Origin: Acidimicrobiia bacterium
Lineage (GTDB): Bacteria > Actinomycetota > Acidimicrobiia > Spongiisociales > ZC4RG35
Direction of reading: 5' to 3'
Assembly: GCA_036555105.1 (NCBI GenBank)
Contig: DATBMA010000062.1
Coordinates: 7,063 to 71,062, forward strand
Length of the DNA stretch: 64,000 nt
Part shown: piece after piece, positions 1,890-54,040 of the stretch
Position numbering within the stretch: position 1 is the stretch's first letter
How the letters are laid out: every line of letters starts with the position of its first letter
Notes under the pieces: model-generated
Databases searched by the model: none
The model's input: only the letters and a program-made list of their open reading frames with translations
Told to the model about the DNA's origin: nothing
Position numbers and translations under genes: made by a program

Positions 1890-2195
1890 CGCTACCACCT
1901 TGCGATGGCAGTGTCCCCGTTTCCGGGGAACGCTTCGGCGTCTCGACGGCCCGAAGGCCCCCGGCCGGCTTTCGCACACCCTTGCGGATGTCCGAAGCGT
2001 GCAGTCCGCCTTGCGGCTTCCTGCCGCCTCAGGAGTCACCCCCTGAAGCGGTCGGCACGATAACCGTCCGCTACAGGATGGCAAGCCCGGAGCCAACCCA
2101 GTTTTCGCGAGGTGGTGTGGGCGTTCCCTTCAGGGTGGGAAAGGTTTTCGTCACCCCGAATCACTCCCCGCGAGGCCCACAAAAGTGAAACCCCG

Positions 2196-2244
2196 AGAGA
2201 GCCAGGGCCGAAGCCCCCACCCTCTCGGGGTTCCTTGCCTCCGG
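2196..2244. repeat. Copy 2 of the intergenic hairpin repeat.
   Basis: The sequence AAACCCCGAGAGAGCCAGGGCCGAAGCCCCCACCCTCTCGGGGTTCC is a direct repeat of the element at 1842-1889. Confidence 0.6.
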
Positions 2245-2430
2245 CTTCCCGGGCCCGAAGACCCGTTCCCCCGGTGACCCCGTTGAGGCCTTTCGGCCCC
2301 TCCGAGACCGGTCTGGAGTCACCCCCACACCGGCCTGCGCAACATACGAGGGCATCCTCCGCCTCGTCAAGCCGGGAGCCTCTCCAGTTTTCGCGAGGGC
2401 CTGCCTGGTTTTCGCGAAACAACGCTCCCG

Positions 2431-2464
2431 GTTTCTGTCACAGGCCGGCCATATAGTCGGAGGG
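2431..2464 (+). promoter_or_regulatory. Candidate DNA-damage (RecA-NDp / PafBC-type) promoter with a leaderless start.
   Basis: The sequence is tTTCTGTCAcaGGC-N6-TATAGT, i.e. TGTCA at 2436-2440 and TATAGT at 2451-2456. The GTG start of the downstream nuclease lies 8 nt after the -10. The same architecture is seen at 5511-5538. Confidence 0.4.
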
Positions 2465-3247
2465 GTGACGCTGGAGACTCTCTCGCCCAGCCGGGCGGCC
2501 GATTTCAAGGCCTGCCCAAGGCTTTTTCGCTTCCGGGCAATCGAGCACCTGCCCGAGCCGACCACGGTTCACCAGGCTCGTGGGACCACGGCCCACCTCG
2601 CTCTGCAGCGGCTTTTCGACGAGGCCCCGGCCGAGCGGACCCCGGACCGGCTCTTCGACCTCTTCCGCCAGGCATGGACCGAGTTGCGCTCGGACGAGGA
2701 GTTCGCGGGGCTCTTCCCTGACCTCGACGAGGAGCGCGCCTGGGGGGTGTCGAGCCTGGCGGTGCTGGCCAACTACTTCGGGTTGGAGGACCCGACCTCC
2801 TTCGATCCCCTCGACCGCGAGCTCGACCTCCTACAGGACTTCGACGGGGGCATCACCATCCGCGGCATCCTCGACCGGATCGATCGGAGGCCGGATGGGC
2901 GCCTGGTCATCACCGACTACAAGACCGGGAGCGCTCCCCCAGAGCCATACGCCCTGCCTGCGTTCTTCGCCTTGAAGATCTACGCCCTGTTGATCCGCCG
3001 ACATCTGGGAGAGACGCCGGCCGAGATCCGGCTGCTCTACTTGAACGGCCCCACCATGTACCGGATCCCGGTGGACGACGGTCAGCTCGACGCAATGGAG
3101 CGTCAGCTGCGGGCGCTGTGGAAGGCGATCGAGCGAGCCCTCGAGAAGGATCTCTTTCCGCCCCGGCCCTCGCGTCTCTGCGACTACTGCTCTTTCCGAG
3201 ACCGCTGCCCGGCATGGGTGGAGCTGGCGGCTGACCTGGCCGGCTGA
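2465..3247 (+). CDS. PD-(D/E)XK nuclease of the Cas4/RecB family carrying the cysteines of a 4Fe-4S cluster.
   Basis: It has a GTG start. It carries the RecB nuclease motif LVITDYKTGS, a C-terminal CDYCSFRDRCPAW (C-x2-C-x5-C) and an N-terminal Cys (FKACPRLF), which is the Cas4/AddB-type Fe-S arrangement. Confidence 0.8.
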   Translation: MTLETLSPSRAADFKACPRLFRFRAIEHLPEPTTVHQARGTTAHLALQRLFDEAPAERTPDRLFDLFRQAWTELRSDEEFAGLFPDLDEERAWGVSSLAVLANYFGLEDPTSFDPLDRELDLLQDFDGGITIRGILDRIDRRPDGRLVITDYKTGSAPPEPYALPAFFALKIYALLIRRHLGETPAEIRLLYLNGPTMYRIPVDDGQLDAMERQLRALWKAIERALEKDLFPPRPSRLCDYCSFRDRCPAWVELAADLAG

Positions 3248-3273
3248 CCTGGCCGGCTGACCTGGCCGGCTGA
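3228..3273. repeat. Tandem 13-bp repeat (CGGCTGACCTGGC, about 3.5 copies) spanning the stop codon of the nuclease gene.
   Basis: Read directly from the sequence. It lies in the 32-bp gap between the convergent genes 2465-3247 (+) and 3280-4551 (-). Each copy carries a TGA in a different frame. Confidence 0.85.
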
Positions 3274-3279
3274 GGTCCG

Positions 3280-4551
3280 CTAGGGGAATATCCCCCTCAC
3301 CAGCTTGGCCTCGGCCACCTTGCCTATCCCGCGCATCAGCGCGGCGGTGCGCATGTCGACGTCGCGGGCGATGCTCACCGAGAGGACGTCATCGAAGGCC
3401 CTGGTCATGATCTCCCGCAGCCTGGCCACGATCTCGTTCTCGGTCCAGAAGTACTTCTGCACGTCCTGGACCCACTCGAAGTAGGAAGCGGTCACCCCCC
3501 CGGCATTGGCGAGGATGTCGGGAACGATGAAGACGCCCTGCTTGCGGAGGATCTCGTCCGCCTCGAGCGTGGTCGGGTTGTTGGCGCCCTCGATCACGAT
3601 CCTCGCCTGCACCTCATGGGCATTTTCGACCGTGAGCACGTTCTGCACTGCGGCCGGCACCAGGATGTCGCATGGGAGCCCGAACACCGCACCCGGGGCG
3701 AGCTGGTCCGCATCGGGATAGCCCTCCAGGTATCGATTCTGGTCCACCCACTTGGCGACGTTCTCGAGCTCGAGCCCATCCGGGTTGTAGAGGGCGGAGC
3801 CGATGTCGGCCACGGCCACCACCTTGCAGCCGAGCTCGTTTGCCGCGATCGCCGCGTAGCGCCCGACGTTGCCGAACCCGTGCACGGCCACCGCGGCGTC
3901 CTTGTATGGGATGCCGACATGGGTGGTGGCCTGGGGGATAAGGCTCACCAGCCCGCGCCCGGTCGCCTCCCGCCTGGCGACGCTGCCGCCCAGTGCGGGC
4001 GGCTTGCCGGTGACCACTGCCGGGACCGAATGCCCGACATGCTGGCTGTAGGTGTCCATCAGCCAGGCCATCACCTGCTCGTTGGTCCCCAGGTCGGGAG
4101 CGGGGATGTCGACCTCGGGACCGATCACGTTGATGATCTCCATCGTGTAGCGGCGTGTGACCCGCTGCAGCTCGGCCCTCGAGAGCTCCATTGGGTTGAC
4201 CCGCACCCCGCCCTTGGCCCCCCCGAAGGGGAGCCCGACGATGGCGCACTTCCAGGTCATCAGCATTGCCAGCGCCGAAACCTCGCCCAGGTCGACATCC
4301 GGGGCGAAGCGGATCCCGCCCTTGGTCGGGCCCATCGTCTTGAGATGCTGAACGCGGTATCCGAAGAGGGTGTCGACCTTGTTGTAGCTGTCACGACGGA
4401 ATGGGAAGCTGACAACTGTGGCGCGCTGGGGGACGCGCAGGCGGTCGGCGACATTGGCGTCGAGCTCCATGAGGGCCGCCACCCGGTCGAACTGCCCCAC
4501 CGCCTCCCGGTACATCGGGGAGTCCCACTCTTTGTTGAGCTCTTCTGGCAT
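3280..4551 (-). CDS. gdh: Glutamate dehydrogenase (Glu/Leu/Phe/Val dehydrogenase family).
   Basis: It has the KGGIRF and GLPFGGAKGG motifs and is 423 aa long. The RBS GAAGGAG precedes the ATG at 4551. Confidence 0.9.
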   Translation of the reverse strand: MPEELNKEWDSPMYREAVGQFDRVAALMELDANVADRLRVPQRATVVSFPFRRDSYNKVDTLFGYRVQHLKTMGPTKGGIRFAPDVDLGEVSALAMLMTWKCAIVGLPFGGAKGGVRVNPMELSRAELQRVTRRYTMEIINVIGPEVDIPAPDLGTNEQVMAWLMDTYSQHVGHSVPAVVTGKPPALGGSVARREATGRGLVSLIPQATTHVGIPYKDAAVAVHGFGNVGRYAAIAANELGCKVVAVADIGSALYNPDGLELENVAKWVDQNRYLEGYPDADQLAPGAVFGLPCDILVPAAVQNVLTVENAHEVQARIVIEGANNPTTLEADEILRKQGVFIVPDILANAGGVTASYFEWVQDVQKYFWTENEIVARLREIMTRAFDDVLSVSIARDVDMRTAALMRGIGKVAEAKLVRGIFP

Positions 4552-4675
4552 GGCTCCTTCTCTGGTGGCGGGCGGATGTTACGTCTGGCCACTGAATCGG
4601 CGGGGTTGGCGGGTCCCTCAAGTATCGAAAAGCCATTGCCGATAGGCATGAGATGGGACGGAGGTCCGCGGCCTG

Positions 4676-5401
4676 ATGCGCCGTGCGCTCGTGCTCGTTG
4701 CAACTGTCGGTGGCTGGGTCCTGGCCATCAACCTCACGGTCTCCGCCGTCGCCCCTCCCGGCCCCGTCTACGAGGTGGAGGTGGCTACCACCTATGCCAA
4801 CGCCACCTTTCCCGAGATCACCGACCCCTCCCCCGATCGCCTGACCCCGGCAGCCGCCCTGCCCAGCATCACCTCCACGGCTCCCACCACCTCCACTACC
4901 GCCGCCCCCTCGACCACCACCGCCCCGACCACTACCACGGCCGCGCCGACCACCACGACCAGGCCAAAGCCCAAGCCGACCACCACCAGCACCACCAACA
5001 CGACCGCGGCGCCGACCACCACCGCGGCACCGGCAGGCAGCTTCTCCTCTTCGGCGGAGACCGACTTCGTCAACCGCATCAACGGCCTCCGAGCCGACAA
5101 CGGCCTGCCGGCGCTCAAGGTCGACGGCGACCTCAAGGCTTACGCCCGCAATTGGGCGGAACACATGGCGACGGTGGACAAGTTCCAGCATTCCGACATC
5201 GGCGACCTCCTAAACCCGTGGACCATCGTCGGGGAGAACATCGGGAAGGGCGGCTCGGTCGCCTCGTTGTTCCAGGCGCTGGTCAACAGCCCCGGCCACT
5301 ACGCCAACATGGTCGAGGACTCCTTCACCCATGTGGGAGTGGGAGTGTGGATCGACGACGACGGCACGATGTGGACCACCCACGTCTTCGCCGGCAAGTA
5401 G
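4676..5401 (+). CDS. Secreted CAP/SCP (PR-1-like) domain protein with an N-terminal TM/signal segment and a Thr/Pro-rich linker.
   Basis: It has the CAP signature GHYANMV...HVGVGVW. The N-terminus is hydrophobic. A TTTAAPTTTT low-complexity linker lies at about 4880-5035. Confidence 0.75.
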   Translation: MRRALVLVATVGGWVLAINLTVSAVAPPGPVYEVEVATTYANATFPEITDPSPDRLTPAAALPSITSTAPTTSTTAAPSTTTAPTTTTAAPTTTTRPKPKPTTTSTTNTTAAPTTTAAPAGSFSSSAETDFVNRINGLRADNGLPALKVDGDLKAYARNWAEHMATVDKFQHSDIGDLLNPWTIVGENIGKGGSVASLFQALVNSPGHYANMVEDSFTHVGVGVWIDDDGTMWTTHVFAGK

Positions 5402-5512
5402 CACAGTCTCACGGTCTCACGGTCTCACGGTCTCACGGTCTCACGGTCTCACGGTCTCACGGTCAGACTTCGAGACCTCGAGACCTCGAGACTGTCCGAC
5501 TTCGAGACCTCA
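5402..5512. repeat. Tandem octamer array (ACGGTCTC, about 7 copies) followed by an array of its inverse (CGAGACCT, about 4 copies), forming a long imperfect hairpin.
   Basis: Read directly: cacagtctc(acggtctc)x6acggtcagacttcgagacctcgagacctcgagactgtccgacttcgagacctc. GGTCTC and GAGACC units can pair, leaving 2-nt bulges between them. Confidence 0.85.
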
Positions 5513-5544
5513 TTTCTGTCCCTGCCCTCTGATACGTTGGCCGG
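5511..5544 (+). promoter_or_regulatory. Second copy of the candidate DNA-damage promoter, with a leaderless start for adnA.
   Basis: The sequence is tTTCTGTCCctGCC-N6-TACGTT, and the GTG start at 5545 lies 7 nt after the -10. It shares the layout TTCTGTC[A/C]-N11-TANNNT with 2431-2456. Confidence 0.35.
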
Positions 5545-8508
5545 GTGAGTGAGGAGCGGAGGATCGGGCCGGCCGAATGGCCCGAGGCGATAGAGGCGAC
5601 CGACGGCCCCCAGCTGGTGGTGGCCGGCCCCGGCACGGGCAAGACCGAGTTTCTGGTGCAACGGGCGGTGCACTTGATCCGGTCCGGCCGGGCAAGGTCT
5701 GACCAGATCCTGGTGCTGTCCTTCTCCCGGCGGGCGGCGACCGACCTACGCAACCGGATCGGGGCTGGGGTCGAGGGCTCGTGGACTGGGATCGCCGCGT
5801 CGACCTTCCACTCCTTCGCCTTCAGGCTGCTCGAGGCCCATTCGGAAAGGGCGCTGGGGTGGCCTTCGATGCCGTCGCTCCTGACTGGGCCTGAACAGGT
5901 CGCTCTGGTTCATCATCTCCTTCGCGAGGAGGACAGTGAGGACTGGCCATCTGACCTCGGCGCCTTTCTGGGAACCCAGACGCTGGCGGTGGAGCTGAGC
6001 GACCTGATCATGAGGACTCGCGAGCTGTTGCTCGATGGGACAGCGTTGGCGGCGATGGGAGTGCCTGAATGGCAGGCCATCCCCTCCTTCCTCCAAGCGT
6101 ACGACCGCAGGCTCGAGGCCGAGGGCAGGATCGACTACGGGACCTTGCTGCTGAGAGCCGCGCAATGCCTCGAGTCGGGGGTGGCCGCCGAGGCCGAAGA
6201 GCAGTACCCCTACGTGTTGGTCGACGAGTTCCAGGACACCACCGTCGTCCAGGCCCGGATGCTCGACCTCCTCACCGCCAGTCGCCGCAACCTCACAGTG
6301 GCAGCCGATCCCTATCAGTCCATCTACGGCTTCCGGGGGGCCGCGATCGACAACGTGATCTCGTTCGTGGAACGCTTCGGTGGAGGCCGTGAGCCTCGTC
6401 GGTGGGTGCTGGCGGAAAGCTTTCGGGTCCCGGCCCCGATCCTGGAGTCGGCCCTGCGGGTGGTGGCGGGTGGGGCCCTTCCTGGCGGGGCCGGCGTGGT
6501 ACTCCCGGCCGGGCATGGCGGCCAGGTTGGGGCATATGTGTTCGACCAGGCGACTGCCGAAGCGGAGTGGATCGCAACCGAGGTCGAGCGGATGCACCTC
6601 GAGGAGGCCGTGCCCTATTCGGCGATGGCGGTCCTGGTCCGCTCCAAGCGCCACCTGCTGCCAGAGCTGTCGAGGGCGCTTGACCGGCGCAACATCCCCC
6701 ATGACCCTCCCGACTCGAGGCTGGCCGACCACCCGGCGGTGCGGATGGTCCTCGACCTCGTCACCGCCGCCACCGACACTGATCCGGAGGAAGTCGACCG
6801 GGCGGTGCGCAGGCTCCTGCTGGGACCGCTCTTCGCCCTCTCGCTCAGCCAGGAGCGCGAGATCTGGCGCATGCGGCGCCGCACCGACAGAGACTGGCCG
6901 CAGCTGCTGAGAGAGACGCTGCCGGAGGGCTCCGCTCTGGCCGGCTTGATCGAAGACCCGGCCTGGGCCGGCCAGGAGGCTGCCGCCGACGGGTTCTGGA
7001 AGGTCTGGTCGCGACTGCCTCAGTTCGGTCGCGTGGTGCACGAGCCCGGGTTCGAGGAGCATCGGGCAGCCCTGGCCTCGCTCGCCCAGTCGCTCACCCA
7101 GCAGAGCGAGCGCGATCCCCGAGTGACGCTGAGGGACTATGGCCGAATGGCGGCCGAGGAGGACTTCGAGGCCACCCCGCTCCTCTCGTTTCGCGCACAC
7201 CAGCCCCACTTGACCCTCACCACGCTCCACCAGGCCAAGGGTCTCGAGTTCGACACCGTCTTCATCGCCGACGCCATCGAAGGCCTGTTCCCCGACAACC
7301 GCCGCACCCAGGCTCTGATCAGGCTCGAACTCCTCACGAGACGCGATGACGACCCCGAGGGCAGGCGGGCGCGCCTCCAGGAGGAGATGCGCCTGGCCTA
7401 CACAGCCATGACCCGGGCAAGGCGCCGGGTGGTCTGGTCGGCGACCTCCGCCGGTCTGGACGAAACCGAAAACCGCCCCTCACGCTTCCTGTTGGCGGCA
7501 GCCGGTGTTTCCCAAGTGGATGAGCTCGTCAGTCCCCCGGCCGAGGCGACCAAGCCGCTGACGGCGGCAGCCGCACAAGCATTCCTACGCCGCACGCTGA
7601 CGGACGCCGCCGCACCGGCTCCTGCTCGAGTAGCCGCGCTGGCAGCCCTGTCCCACCCGCCGGCGGGAGACTGGTGGGAGCCACGACGTTTCCCCGGCGT
7701 AGCCGAGCGCGGCCCCGATCACGGGGTCATCTCGTTGCCCATCGTCCTTTCCCCGAGCCAGGCCGACTCCTACGAGTCCTGCCCGCGCCGCTACGTGCTG
7801 GAGAAGCGCCTGGGCCTGCAAGGAGGCGACAGCCCGTATGCCCAATTCGGCCGGCTGATCCACACAGTCCTCGAGCGAGCCGAGAGTGCTGCCAGGGTGA
7901 GCGGGCTCCCCCACGCCCAGTTGGAGACCGCCCTTGCCAAGCTGGCCGAGGTGTGGGCGAAGGAGGCCGACTTCGGAAGCCCCGTCCTCACCGAGGCATG
8001 GGAGATGCGCGGCGCCAAGTTGCTCACCATCCTCTATGAGGCGTGGCCGCCTCCGGAGGGCACCGAGTTGCTCGCCGTCGAGAAGAGCCTCGAGTGGACG
8101 CTTGACGAGATCAAGTGGTGGGGGCGGGCCGATCGGATCGAGCGGCTCCCCACCGGTGGGCTGCGGGTCATCGACTACAAAACGACCACCAGTCCCCCCA
8201 CCACCGGGGAGGCAGCCGAGTCCCTCCAGCTCGGCTTCTATCTCTGCGCAGTCGCAGACGATCCCGAGATGGCGGCCTGGGGCGAGCCGGAGGCAGCCCA
8301 GATGTGGTTCCCGCTCGGCGGCAAGAGGCCGGCGGTGCGCGACTTCGAGGTCGCCAAGCTCGAGGGGGTGGGCCATCGCCTCCTCGAGGTCGAACGGGGG
8401 ATCAAGGCAGAGGAGTGGCCGGCCCGGCCCTCCAAGGATTGCGGCCGCTGCTCGGTCAAGCTCGTCTGCCCGGCATGGCCCGAGGGAAGAGAGGCCTACC
8501 TCCCATGA
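5545..8508 (+). CDS. adnA: AdnA-like subunit of an ATP-dependent helicase-nuclease: an N-terminal UvrD/PcrA-type SF1 helicase and a C-terminal RecB-type nuclease with Fe-S cysteines.
   Basis: It has the Walker A motif GPGTGKTEF, UvrD-family helicase motifs (DEFQDT), the C-terminal nuclease motif RVIDYKTT and a Cys cluster KDCGRCSVKLVCP. Its stop TGA overlaps the start of the next gene (ATGA at 8505-8508). Confidence 0.75.
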   Translation: MSEERRIGPAEWPEAIEATDGPQLVVAGPGTGKTEFLVQRAVHLIRSGRARSDQILVLSFSRRAATDLRNRIGAGVEGSWTGIAASTFHSFAFRLLEAHSERALGWPSMPSLLTGPEQVALVHHLLREEDSEDWPSDLGAFLGTQTLAVELSDLIMRTRELLLDGTALAAMGVPEWQAIPSFLQAYDRRLEAEGRIDYGTLLLRAAQCLESGVAAEAEEQYPYVLVDEFQDTTVVQARMLDLLTASRRNLTVAADPYQSIYGFRGAAIDNVISFVERFGGGREPRRWVLAESFRVPAPILESALRVVAGGALPGGAGVVLPAGHGGQVGAYVFDQATAEAEWIATEVERMHLEEAVPYSAMAVLVRSKRHLLPELSRALDRRNIPHDPPDSRLADHPAVRMVLDLVTAATDTDPEEVDRAVRRLLLGPLFALSLSQEREIWRMRRRTDRDWPQLLRETLPEGSALAGLIEDPAWAGQEAAADGFWKVWSRLPQFGRVVHEPGFEEHRAALASLAQSLTQQSERDPRVTLRDYGRMAAEEDFEATPLLSFRAHQPHLTLTTLHQAKGLEFDTVFIADAIEGLFPDNRRTQALIRLELLTRRDDDPEGRRARLQEEMRLAYTAMTRARRRVVWSATSAGLDETENRPSRFLLAAAGVSQVDELVSPPAEATKPLTAAAAQAFLRRTLTDAAAPAPARVAALAALSHPPAGDWWEPRRFPGVAERGPDHGVISLPIVLSPSQADSYESCPRRYVLEKRLGLQGGDSPYAQFGRLIHTVLERAESAARVSGLPHAQLETALAKLAEVWAKEADFGSPVLTEAWEMRGAKLLTILYEAWPPPEGTELLAVEKSLEWTLDEIKWWGRADRIERLPTGGLRVIDYKTTTSPPTTGEAAESLQLGFYLCAVADDPEMAAWGEPEAAQMWFPLGGKRPAVRDFEVAKLEGVGHRLLEVERGIKAEEWPARPSKDCGRCSVKLVCPAWPEGREAYLP

Positions 8509-11500
8509 CCTTCGAACCGACGCCCGAGCAGCAGGCGGTCATCGACGCCCCCACCGGTCCGCTGCGGGTGTCGGCCGGCGCGGGAACCGGCAAGACCACC
8601 ACCATCGCCCTGCGGGTGGCATCAATGGTGACCAATGGCGGAGTCGCCCCCGAGGAGGTCCTCGGGGTCACGTTCACCAACAAGGCGGCCGGCGAGCTGT
8701 CCGACCGGATCCGATTCCATCTCGCCTCCCGTGTCGAGGCCGGACAGGAGGTCGAGGTCCGCACCTATCACGGCTTCGCCGCCCAGATCGTCCGGGAGTT
8801 CGGCGTGCTGATCGGGATCGAACGGGGCACCAAGGTCATCAGCCCCACCTACAGCCGCCAGCTGCTGCTGGAAGTGATGCGGCGCCATCGCCTGCCCGGC
8901 GTCGACCAGACCTACTTCCAGGTCGTGGGGAGGATGCTCCGACTGTCGTCCAGCCTCGGCGACCACCTCCTGACCGCCAGAGAGGTGGCGGCCCCTGAGG
9001 GAGCCGGCGGGGCCTGGGTGGAGCGGGCGGGGCTGTTGGAAGGCCTTCGCCACTACGAGTTGGAGAAGAGGCGGCTGGGGGTGGCCGACTACGGCGATCT
9101 GATCACCGGCGCCCACCGGGTCTTGATCGAGCGGCCGGAGACGGCCGCCCGCATCTCCGCCCGGTACCGGGTCGTCCTGCTCGACGAGTATCAGGACACC
9201 AACCCGGCCCAGCGAAAGATGCTCCAGGCGCTCTTTCCATCCGGGCACTCGGTGACCGCGGTCGGGGACACGGACCAGACCATCTATGAATGGAGGGGAG
9301 CCTCCCTCGACAACTTCAGGAGCTTCCCCCTTCACTTTCCGTCGGCCTCAGGCCATCCGGCGCCGACCCTTCCCCTCACCTTCAACCGGCGGTCCGGTAC
9401 CAGGATCATCGAAGTGGCGAACGCCATCCGCGACCAGATCGGGTCGGACTCGGCCCCGCTGCAGCCCAAGCCCGACGCCCCCGAAGGCGGGGTGGAGACC
9501 GCTTGGTGGCGAACCTCGGTCGACGAGGCCGAATGGATAGCCACCCGGCTGGAGGAGTTGCACGAATCGATGCGCTGGCGCGACGCGGCGGTCCTGTTCC
9601 GCAAGAACAAGGACATCCCGTTGATCCTGGAGACTCTTGGCCGCCACGAGATCCCGGTCGAGGTCGCCAATCTGGGTGGGCTGCTCTCGGTTCCCGAGGT
9701 GACCGACCTCCACTGCTGGCTGCGGATCCTGGCGGATCCCGAGGACGGTCCCGCCTTGGCCAGGGTGATGCTTGGGTCCGGCTACCGGCTGGGCCTGGCC
9801 GACCTGGCCGCACTGGCCAGGTGGGTTCGAAGCCTGCGGCCCAGGCGACCCGAGCGTGATGACGAGGCGGGGCCCTCGCCGATCGAAGCCGTCGACCGAC
9901 TCGAAGACGTGGCCGGCCTCCGACCGGAGGCGGCACCGGTCCTCCAGTCGTTCCGCGCCACCTACAGAGCGCTGTTGGTGGCCGCCCAGGGATCATCCCT
10001 GGTGGAGTTGTGCCGGACGGTGCTCGAGGCCACCCGCGCCTGGTCCCACGTCGATGCCTTGCCCAGCGCATCGAGGCTTAGTGCCCGGCTCAACCTCTAC
10101 AGATTCCTCGATCTGGCAGAGGACTGGTCGCCGTTGGAGGGGCGCCCCTCGTTGGATGCATTCCTGCTCTTCCTCGCCGACTCGGCGGACGCCGAGGCCG
10201 ACGAGCTCGATCCGGCGCGGCTGTCTGGCGCCGATGCAGTCACCCTGGTGACGGTCCACCGAGCCAAGGGCTTGGAGTGGGAAGCCGTCTTCCTGCCCGC
10301 CGTCCACAAGGACAACTTCCCTTCCCGGCAGATCAACTCGGACAATCCGCGCAAGAACGCCCAGTCCCTGCCCTATGAGCTGCGCCTCGACGCCGGCGAC
10401 CTGCCTGGCCCGGAGATGACCGACGCCAAGTTCGAGGCCGCGGTCCGCGAGCGTCACCTCCAGCAGGAGTGGCGAGTGGCGTACGTCGCCGCCACCAGGG
10501 CCAAGAGCCTCCTGGCGGTGAGCGGCGCCTTTTGGGGGGGCAGCCCCGAGCCGAACACCAACCCGCGGGAGCCCAGCCCGCTGTTCGAGCTCGTCGACAG
10601 CCATCCGATGTCAAGGCAAGTGAACTTCGAACCCGATCCGGGCGAGCAGCCCGAGCTGCTCGGACTCGAGCCGACGGCCCCCTCCCCTGATCCCACCTTC
10701 GCCAGCGGTTGGGAGGAGGCCATGCGACGCGCCATCGCCGACCCCGCCTACCCGGCCCAGCTGGCTGACGAGCTGAAGGTGTCCGACGCGTTCGAGCGCA
10801 GATTGGCCGACGAGGAGGCGACCCTGTTCGACCTACCCCAACTCCCGGGCGAGGAGGCCTCCGCTACTCCCATCGTCTCGGTGACCGGGCTGGTCACCTA
10901 TGCATCCTGTCCCCTCCGGTACAGGTGGTCGGAGGTCGACCGACTGCCCCAGCGACGCTCACCGGCGGCCAGGCGCGGGTCCGAGGTGCACCGGCGCATC
11001 GAGCTCCACAACCTGGGAGTGGTCCCGCTCGACGATCTCGCCTTCGACACATATGACGCCACTTCCGACGTCACCACCGCCGCAGGACAGGACGAACGAC
11101 CTCACGACCCCATGGTCTCTTTCCTCGGCTCGCGCTTCTCGACCGACAGGCCCCTGCTGACAGAGGCCCCGTTCGAGTTGCGACTCAATTCGGGCACCAA
11201 GGTGCGCGGGCGGATCGATGCCGTGTACGAGAGCTCGGAGGGAATCTGGGAGGTGGTCGACTTCAAGACCGGCCCGCCGAGCGCCGACCCGGCCACCCGC
11301 GTGCAGCTGCAGGCATACGCGGTGGCGGTCGAGGACGTCCCGTTTCGCAGCAATCCGCCCGATGATGTGACCGTCACCTTCGCCCACCTAGGCAAGGAGG
11401 CAATCGAGCTGAGCGAGCACGTCGATGAAGCCTGGCTGCAGGAGGCGCGAGAACATCTGGATCAGCTGACGGCCGGGATCGAGGCGCAGGCCTACCCGGC

Positions 11501-11573
11501 CACCCCGGGTCCCGGCTGCGCGAGCTGTGACTTCTTCGGCTTCTGCGCCGCCGGCCAGGCCTATCTCAGCTGA
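8505..11573 (+). CDS. adnB: AdnB-like subunit of an ATP-dependent helicase-nuclease (UvrD-like helicase fused to a RecB nuclease with Fe-S cysteines).
   Basis: The start was set at ATG 8505 (reading MTFEPTPEQQAVIDAP), in frame with the track ORF 8115-11573, whose upstream extension is Arg/Gly-rich. It has the Walker A motif GAGTGKTTT and DEYQDT, the C-terminal nuclease motif EVVDFKTG and the cysteines PGCASCDFFGFC. Confidence 0.75.
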   Translation: MTFEPTPEQQAVIDAPTGPLRVSAGAGTGKTTTIALRVASMVTNGGVAPEEVLGVTFTNKAAGELSDRIRFHLASRVEAGQEVEVRTYHGFAAQIVREFGVLIGIERGTKVISPTYSRQLLLEVMRRHRLPGVDQTYFQVVGRMLRLSSSLGDHLLTAREVAAPEGAGGAWVERAGLLEGLRHYELEKRRLGVADYGDLITGAHRVLIERPETAARISARYRVVLLDEYQDTNPAQRKMLQALFPSGHSVTAVGDTDQTIYEWRGASLDNFRSFPLHFPSASGHPAPTLPLTFNRRSGTRIIEVANAIRDQIGSDSAPLQPKPDAPEGGVETAWWRTSVDEAEWIATRLEELHESMRWRDAAVLFRKNKDIPLILETLGRHEIPVEVANLGGLLSVPEVTDLHCWLRILADPEDGPALARVMLGSGYRLGLADLAALARWVRSLRPRRPERDDEAGPSPIEAVDRLEDVAGLRPEAAPVLQSFRATYRALLVAAQGSSLVELCRTVLEATRAWSHVDALPSASRLSARLNLYRFLDLAEDWSPLEGRPSLDAFLLFLADSADAEADELDPARLSGADAVTLVTVHRAKGLEWEAVFLPAVHKDNFPSRQINSDNPRKNAQSLPYELRLDAGDLPGPEMTDAKFEAAVRERHLQQEWRVAYVAATRAKSLLAVSGAFWGGSPEPNTNPREPSPLFELVDSHPMSRQVNFEPDPGEQPELLGLEPTAPSPDPTFASGWEEAMRRAIADPAYPAQLADELKVSDAFERRLADEEATLFDLPQLPGEEASATPIVSVTGLVTYASCPLRYRWSEVDRLPQRRSPAARRGSEVHRRIELHNLGVVPLDDLAFDTYDATSDVTTAAGQDERPHDPMVSFLGSRFSTDRPLLTEAPFELRLNSGTKVRGRIDAVYESSEGIWEVVDFKTGPPSADPATRVQLQAYAVAVEDVPFRSNPPDDVTVTFAHLGKEAIELSEHVDEAWLQEAREHLDQLTAGIEAQAYPATPGPGCASCDFFGFCAAGQAYLS

Positions 11574-33014: not shown

Positions 33015-35648
<2,634 letters not shown>

Positions 35649-53891: not shown

Positions 53892-54040
53892 TCCTCCTCC
53901 TGTCCAGGCACTTGGCTGTCCAAGCGATTGGCTGTCAAAGCGGTTGGCATTTGAGCCCTTGGCGCCCGGGCAGCATACCGGCCGGGGTCGGGAACGTCCC
54001 GGCCGGTCCCATGGCCCAGCCGCGCTGCTTTCATGAGCCC

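Follow-up and report, generated by a model that had tools for sequence, protein, structure and literature searches.

Repair genes and promoters at the locus

The window analysed here, a 64-kb stretch (GC ~0.67) of contig DATBMA010000062.1 from a bacterium of the class Acidimicrobiia, carries a gene for a small nuclease and, further along the same strand, the adnAB genes; immediately ahead of each of these two units lies a promoter in which the tetranucleotide TGTC, the core of a -26 element, is followed exactly 12 nucleotides (nt) later by a -10 hexamer of the form TANNNT and then by a GTG start codon (Table 1). An initial annotation of the window had likened this layout to the PafBC/RecA-NDp promoters of mycobacteria, and it is indeed identical to the published arrangement TGTC-N12-TANNNT.

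Table 1 Promoter elements and genes in the window, with related sites at other loci (L numbers).
Feature	Position	Strand	Evidence or remark
-26 element of the nuclease promoter, tttcTGTCAc (core TGTC 2436-2439)	2432..2441	+	Matrix score 32.0 bits; kept in 79 nuclease promoters
-10 hexamer of the nuclease promoter, TATAGT	2452..2457	+	12 nt past TGTC; 12-nt spacer specific
Nuclease gene: PD-(D/E)XK 'RecB-family exonuclease', 260 amino acids, GTG start	2465..3247	+	Pfam PF12705, E = 1.9e-40
Periodic hairpin, (CACGGTCT)x8 facing GAGACC units, between the CAP-domain gene stop and the adnA promoter	5402..5512	+	
-26 element of the adnAB promoter, tttcTGTCCc (core TGTC 5517-5520)	5513..5522	+	Matrix score 28.7 bits; 62 adnA-associated sites in relatives
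-10 hexamer of the adnAB promoter, TACGTT	5533..5538	+	12 nt past TGTC; preceding TGA is an extended -10-like TGn
adnA: UvrD-type motor and C-terminal PD-(D/E)XK nuclease, 987 amino acids, GTG start	5545..8508	+	Pfam; PDB
adnB: UvrD-type motor and C-terminal nuclease	8505..11573	+	Pfam; PDB
DUF222-HNH gene with TGTC-N12-TANNNT, leaderless-type promoter	L079 2523-3563	-	
DUF222-HNH gene with TGTC-N12-TANNNT, leaderless-type promoter	L080 5714-6772	-	
DUF222-HNH gene with TGTC-N12-TANNNT, leaderless-type promoter	L031 3087-4466	+	
Palindrome sites at WYL genes	L084 266-303; L085 9960-10000; L086-L112 upstream of the WYL gene		

The nuclease had been described as Cas4-like, and its product does carry the four-cysteine pattern of AddB and Cas4 (C17...C238-x2-C241-x5-C247) in addition to the PF12705 match; its score against the Cas4 model TIGR00372, however, is 43.9 bits, below the 65-bit equivalog cut-off. 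Membership of Cas4 was rejected on this score, and we file the protein with the PD-(D/E)XK RecB family for the same reason; judged by these matches, the accurate label is a RecB-family nuclease with a Cas4-like fold, not Cas4. No CRISPR array was seen in the window. Homologues of 259-264 amino acids share the start position of the nuclease, its closest protein relatives are encoded in Acidimicrobiia metagenome-assembled genomes (MAGs), and it is 66-77% identical to its orthologues in 80 species. The best matches of the adnA and adnB products in the PDB are chains A and B of Mycobacterium smegmatis AdnAB (7sjr_A, E = 2e-39, and 6ppu_B, E = 6e-102), which bears out the earlier label of an adnAB-like operon; on these similarities the window genes are true AdnA and AdnB orthologues, and they form one operon because the adnB ATG overlaps the adnA stop codon (ATGA). 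Pfam and PDB matches also support the statement that both units encode nucleases or helicases. Between the nuclease gene and adnAB lie a minus-strand glutamate dehydrogenase gene (gdh) and the CAP-domain gene, and the gene order conserved in Acidimicrobiia runs from an AMP-ligase gene (-) through the nuclease gene (+), gdh (-), either a small open reading frame (ORF) or the CAP-domain gene, adnA and adnB to dtd (-) and plsB.

Both promoter sites that the initial annotation had placed upstream of the two units are present in the sequence; its ranges (2433-2456 and 5513-5537) locate them correctly but each stops 1 nt short at the 3' end, and the start codons that it put 7-8 nt after the -10 are as close as stated, the measured gaps being 7 nt at site 1 (tttcTGTCAcaggccggccaTATAGTcggagggGTG, ahead of the nuclease gene) and 6 nt at site 2 (tttcTGTCCctgccctctgaTACGTTggccggGTG, ahead of adnA). 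In both ORFs the GTG is the earliest possible start following an in-frame stop; in adnA that stop (TGA, 5530-5532) directly adjoins the -10, which leaves no room for a start codon before it. At site 1 a GGAGG ends 1 nt ahead of the GTG and is thus too near to it to be a fit ribosome-binding site. We consider the mRNAs of the nuclease gene and adnA to be probably leaderless.

Neither site has a sigma-70-type -35/-10 pair or a TTGACA-type partner on the plus strand, and an ordinary sigma-70 promoter was rejected on this ground. SOS/LexA control was likewise rejected, since no SOS box was found near either promoter; the window does contain 57 loose matches, but these are GC-rich palindromes scattered along it. 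No dyad was found at either site, and the -26 element is a single, non-palindromic half-site.

Conservation and specificity of the motif

As a bare pattern, TGTC-N12-TANNNT is present at these two sites and nowhere else in the window, but chance predicts 0.73 occurrences and 14 of 100 shuffled sequences contain at least two, so the two matches alone are not significant. What makes them significant is their matrix scores, the nuclease and helicase genes immediately downstream and their conservation in 80 species. With a 30-column matrix built on 142 orthologous sites and Markov shuffles as the null, the two sites score 32.0 and 28.7 bits, the rest of the window stays below 8 bits and the best shuffle reaches 15.9 bits.

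Conservation was followed at the orthologous locus of 80 Acidimicrobiia species returned by one genome scan, which together with the window make up a comparison set of 81 sequences (1.12 Mb, both strands scanned). The strict motif lies at most 90 nt from the nuclease start in 75 of the 80 loci, and once differences in N-terminal length are taken into account, the 81 sequences hold 79 nuclease-associated sites. Directly ahead of adnA the motif is found in 14 sequences, the window included; at most of the other loci it takes the form ttTC-TGTCACACCC-N6-TAnnTT and precedes an ORF of 35-73 amino acids, with adnA starting a few nt past the stop codon of that ORF. Adnexed to adnA in one or the other way, directly or via the preceding small ORF, are 62 sites.

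The motif first noted before the two units of the window is kept across Acidimicrobiia with a strictly fixed spacer: N12 gives 149 matches in the comparison set, and each of the other spacers from N8 to N16 gives 1-9. An ATG or GTG stands 5-8 nt past the -10 in 144 of these 149 matches, and the close start geometry already remarked on in the initial annotation recurs at 141 of the 144, with gaps of 6 nt (n = 48), 7 nt (n = 83) or 8 nt (n = 10). Conservation is limited to TGTCA(y)(t) and the -10; spacer positions carry less than 0.5 bit and the flanks vary, and we therefore regard the motif as a footprint and not as general sequence similarity. Nothing is conserved at -35 across 141 sites, save the TTC abutting TGTC, and a conserved left arm or dyad is lacking at all 62 adnA-type sites. 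Variation in what had been taken as a GTGGC half, which the initial annotation called notable, is not meaningful, as positions past TGTCA(y) are unconserved in Acidimicrobiia.

Comparison with PafBC promoters and other systems

The PafBC motif of M. smegmatis, tGTCgg(N10)tA(N3)T, combines a SigA -10 in its 3' part with a 5' part at -23 to -28 and has no -35; PafBC sits between sigma region 4 and the DNA, where R46 and R50 of PafB read both guanines of the GTC triplet, a mode of action named 'sigma adaptation' (PMC8635444). Only the helix-turn-helix (HTH) domain of PafB contacts DNA. Chromatin immunoprecipitation sequencing (ChIP-seq) and cryogenic electron microscopy (cryo-EM) have shown PafBC to be the factor at this motif, and single-stranded DNA activates it (PMC11804915). 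AdnAB has been named as a member of the PafBC regulon (PMC8223512; PMC8151990), the 13E12 family of Mycobacterium tuberculosis carries RecA_NDp (PMC3381160), and mitomycin C induces the 'recB-like exonuclease rv2119' in cells deleted for recA (PMC8151990). Orthology between the window nuclease and rv2119 was not established: a representative search gave 314 clusters below 1e-30, and the ten looked up were unnamed metagenome proteins.

Like the sites described here, the PafBC promoters of Mycobacterium (RecA-NDp or P1; tTGTCRgtg-N8-TAnnnT) have TGTC with an invariant GTC triplet 12 nt before TANNNT, no -35, a non-palindromic element and start codons near the -10, and they likewise stand ahead of adnAB and of DUF222-HNH (13E12-type) genes. 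The few other well-formed sites in Acidimicrobiia precede DUF222-HNH endonuclease genes (L079, L080 and L031; Table 1), whose products we take to be the 13E12 family. One further DUF222-HNH homologue (L084 4227-5384) bears instead an SOS-box-like TCGAACTGGTGTACGC that overlaps its -10.

Because the motif geometry is the same and the gene content parallels the mycobacterial regulon, both window sites are likely to belong to the PafBC/RecA-NDp class, as damage-inducible, leaderless promoters that respond to an activator of the WYL family; the single half-site fits PafBC in that only the PafB HTH touches DNA. Several observations weigh against this reading. The PafBC motif is reported not to be conserved in Streptomyces venezuelae, so its extension across the phylum is not automatic, and the flanks here, TTC-TGTCA-(c/t)(a/t), differ from the t-TGTC-gg/Rgtg of Mycobacterium (g-g in M. 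smegmatis). Neither the window nor the ~10 kb on either side of the locus in relatives (~1.1 Mb altogether) yielded a pafB, pafC or WYL gene, and the two WYL regulators of Acidimicrobiales described below are single genes that are not beside pafA and are distant from PafB and PafC. Two other differences concern the setting: the host belongs to the class Acidimicrobiia whereas the published examples are all from the class Actinomycetes, and many Acidimicrobiia have the 35-73-amino-acid ORF between promoter and adnA.

Three other kinds of damage-responsive promoter share some of these features. The SiwR promoter of M. smegmatis (msmeg_1357-56) also has a WYL activator at the -26 region beside the -10 under genotoxic stress, but SiwR reads a GGA triplet within a 19-bp palindrome and serves one adjacent operon, in contrast to the GTC and lone half-site found here. 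DriD of Caulobacter and other homodimeric WYL activators include, as proposed here, a WYL regulator that senses single-stranded DNA in an SOS-independent damage response; DriD, however, is a homodimer on a dyad site, with another promoter geometry, in Proteobacteria. Actinobacterial LexA/SOS box promoters (TCGAAC-N4-GTTCGA) also control DNA-repair genes, and some mycobacterial genes bear both elements, but LexA acts by release of repression and not by activation, and the SOS box is absent from the window promoters.

Candidate regulators and alternative explanations

Pfam scans of 44 window ORFs found no pafBC, and a WYL regular expression together with tblastn using a typed HTH_11 consensus gave no match over all loci. 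Window ORFs scanned besides the repair genes encode metabolic or membrane proteins, with no repair protein or such a regulator among them. A class-A WYL protein has been reported in an Acidimicrobiia MAG and a pupylation locus in Acidimicrobiales, and a search with a typed generic YafY consensus brought up two HTH-WYL-WCX regulators from Acidimicrobiales (P0124 and P0159), which are about equally distant from PafBC, PafC, DriD and PafB. Both of their genes, and most of 27 metagenome relatives, have CCTGACA-N5-TGTCAGG at their own promoters (Table 1), with the right half 12-13 nt before a TANNNT -10 and a leaderless-type start, which suggests that these single-gene WYL regulators autoregulate at -26. 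A metagenome scan with P0124 returned the autoregulatory palindrome and no link to the nuclease/adnAB locus. In addition, 38 nuclease promoters in relatives, though not that of the window, have a dyad GAATnACA-N4-TGTnATTC around the -26 element (L001-L014, L016, L020, L023, L028-L030 and further loci), with symmetry at 5.7 of 8 positions at that offset versus ~2 at other offsets; this dyad hints at a dimeric factor in those lineages.

A chance match of two sites, or a pair of ordinary constitutive promoters, has in its favour the bare-pattern count, two against 0.73 expected and reached in 14% of shuffles, but this explanation is effectively refuted by conservation at orthologous positions in 80 species amid variable flanks, by the excess of matches at spacer 12 over all other spacers and by matrix scores far above those of shuffles, and we give it almost no credence. 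A more serious alternative holds that the -26 element is read by a single-gene, homodimeric YafY-family WYL activator of the P0124/P0159 kind and not by a PafB/PafC heterodimer, that is, by an ancestral or alternative form of sigma adaptation. The P0124-family genes are indeed single and do not adjoin pafA, their own promoters share the TGTCA half-site and the 12-13 nt geometry to the -10, the 38 dyad-bearing nuclease promoters would suit a homodimer, and SiwR, a homodimeric WYL activator, also works via the -26 region inside a palindrome. We nevertheless consider this explanation unlikely because the window promoters and all 62 adnA-type sites consist of one half-site without a conserved left arm, the dyad of the nuclease promoters differs from the P0124-type palindrome in spacing (N4, not N5) and left arm, and nothing links P0124-type genes to genomes bearing these sites; moreover, homologous HTH domains are expected to give similar half-sites, and the R-x3-R recognition helix is common to PafB and SiwR.

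It is also conceivable that the likeness to PafBC is coincidental: TGTCA might serve as an operator for some unrelated regulator (a ClgR-like factor, for instance, or a repressor) or belong to an alternative-sigma promoter. In one earlier report ClgR bound RecA-NDp (Wang 2011, as related by papers citing it), a regulator gene was not observed in the window or in the loci of relatives, and the mycobacterial consensus has other bases past TGTC. A fixed phase of exactly 12 nt to a SigA-type -10, however, is a property of promoter architecture and not of an operator, the distance from TGTC to the -10 (12 nt) is too short for a sigma-70-family -35 (16-18 nt), PafBC has since been identified by ChIP-seq and cryo-EM as the factor at the motif, and the downstream gene families are the same as in the mycobacterial regulon; coincidence is thus, in our judgement, quite improbable.

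A proposed mechanism and its implications

Under the PafBC-type reading, each site would be a hybrid promoter without a -35, in which a housekeeping-sigma -10 (TANNNT) is preceded, at a distance of exactly 12 nt, by a -26 element (TTC-TGTCA) specific to the activator. As in mycobacteria, RNA polymerase with SigA would be unable to use such promoters by itself. A WYL-domain activator, PafBC or an Acidimicrobiia counterpart, would be switched on by single-stranded DNA, insert between sigma region 4 and the DNA and read the GTC triplet, as in sigma adaptation; transcription would then start 6-7 nt past the -10, on the first base (A or G) of the start codon, and yield leaderless mRNAs. DNA damage is predicted to induce, together, the small iron-sulfur nuclease of the RecB type and AdnAB, the machine for end resection. 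The anatomy of the motif, its spacing, position and conservation and the gene identities are observed in the sequences; the identity of the activator, induction by single-stranded DNA or damage and the exact transcription start we infer.

The system itself is a known one, and the promoters reveal no new mechanism; what is new is the host class, the slightly different flank consensus (TTC-TGTCA-y) and the 141 natural sites. The PafBC-type -26/-10 architecture, documented only in the class Actinomycetes, would thereby be extended to the deep-branching, mostly uncultured Acidimicrobiia, with AdnAB and the small RecB-type nuclease, and hence DNA-end resection, as the conserved core of the predicted regulon. 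The 141 aligned sites provide a comparative set that defines the bases the activator would need, namely TGTCA, the invariant 12-nt spacer and the -10, and the site matrix can be used to find the rest of the regulon in Acidimicrobiia MAGs. Were a lone P0124-type WYL activator, homodimeric and autoregulated through the TGTCA half-site at -26 in its own promoter, to run the regulon instead, a proposition that we regard as doubtful, sigma adaptation at -26 would be older than the PafBC gene duplication and the ancestral core regulon would be the small iron-sulfur nuclease and AdnAB, often with a co-transcribed 35-73-amino-acid protein ending in Ala-Ala.

Neighbouring features

The small ORF ahead of adnA (35-73 amino acids) occurs at L021 10119-10262, L049 10122-10259, L080 10125-10262 and ~40 other loci, and is absent from the window. 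Its product has the core F.DPV.YL...GIEAELV and always ends in Ala-Ala immediately before adnA; no Pfam match was found for these products, which may be short-lived partners or regulators of AdnAB.

In the window itself, a periodic hairpin (Table 1) with a minimum free energy (MFE) of -55.7 kcal/mol (z = -5.0) lies between the CAP-domain gene and the adnA promoter. Close relatives lack this hairpin, which may be a terminator, an insulator or an unstable microsatellite. A tandem repeat, (CTGGCCGGCTGAC)x3.9 at 3224-3273, spans the nuclease stop codon, in the 32 nt that separate the nuclease gene from the convergent gdh. Within adnB, ARAGORN calls a 92-nt tRNA-Gly(ACC) at 9755-9846 that is almost certainly spurious.

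A gene for a structured RNA of ~155 nt (2180-2336, minus strand) directly adjoins the nuclease promoter on its upstream side. It has a canonical promoter, TTGACG-N18-TATGTT (-35 at 2370-2365, -10 at 2346-2341), two phased CGCGAAAA upstream elements (2388-2396 and 2409-2417) and an intrinsic terminator at its 3' end; the predicted fold has an MFE of -104.8 kcal/mol (z = -6.9). Aligned across 30 species, the RNA has compensatory changes at 19 of its 33 predicted pairs. With a covariance model it was detected in 73 of the 81 sequences, at scores of at least 62 bits and mostly as two copies; the second copy of the window lies at 1835-1937 on the minus strand. The orientation of the RNA relative to the nuclease gene varies among species, and we therefore treat it as an independent gene and not a leader. 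Rfam searches returned no family match for it, only noise, and it looks like an undescribed small RNA family.

Two other repeats lie elsewhere in the window. A (CCCTGT)x36 hexamer repeat at 34350-34564 reads as (Leu-Ser)n in the plus-strand frame of an ORF (33965-34948) that has no Pfam match and is overlapped by a long minus-strand ORF. At 53900-53948, three direct 16-nt repeats (CTGTCCAAGCnnTTGG) stand immediately upstream, on the minus strand, of the Shine-Dalgarno sequence and ATG (53891) of an AMP-binding acyl-CoA ligase gene, an arrangement that probably represents a direct-repeat transcription-factor site.

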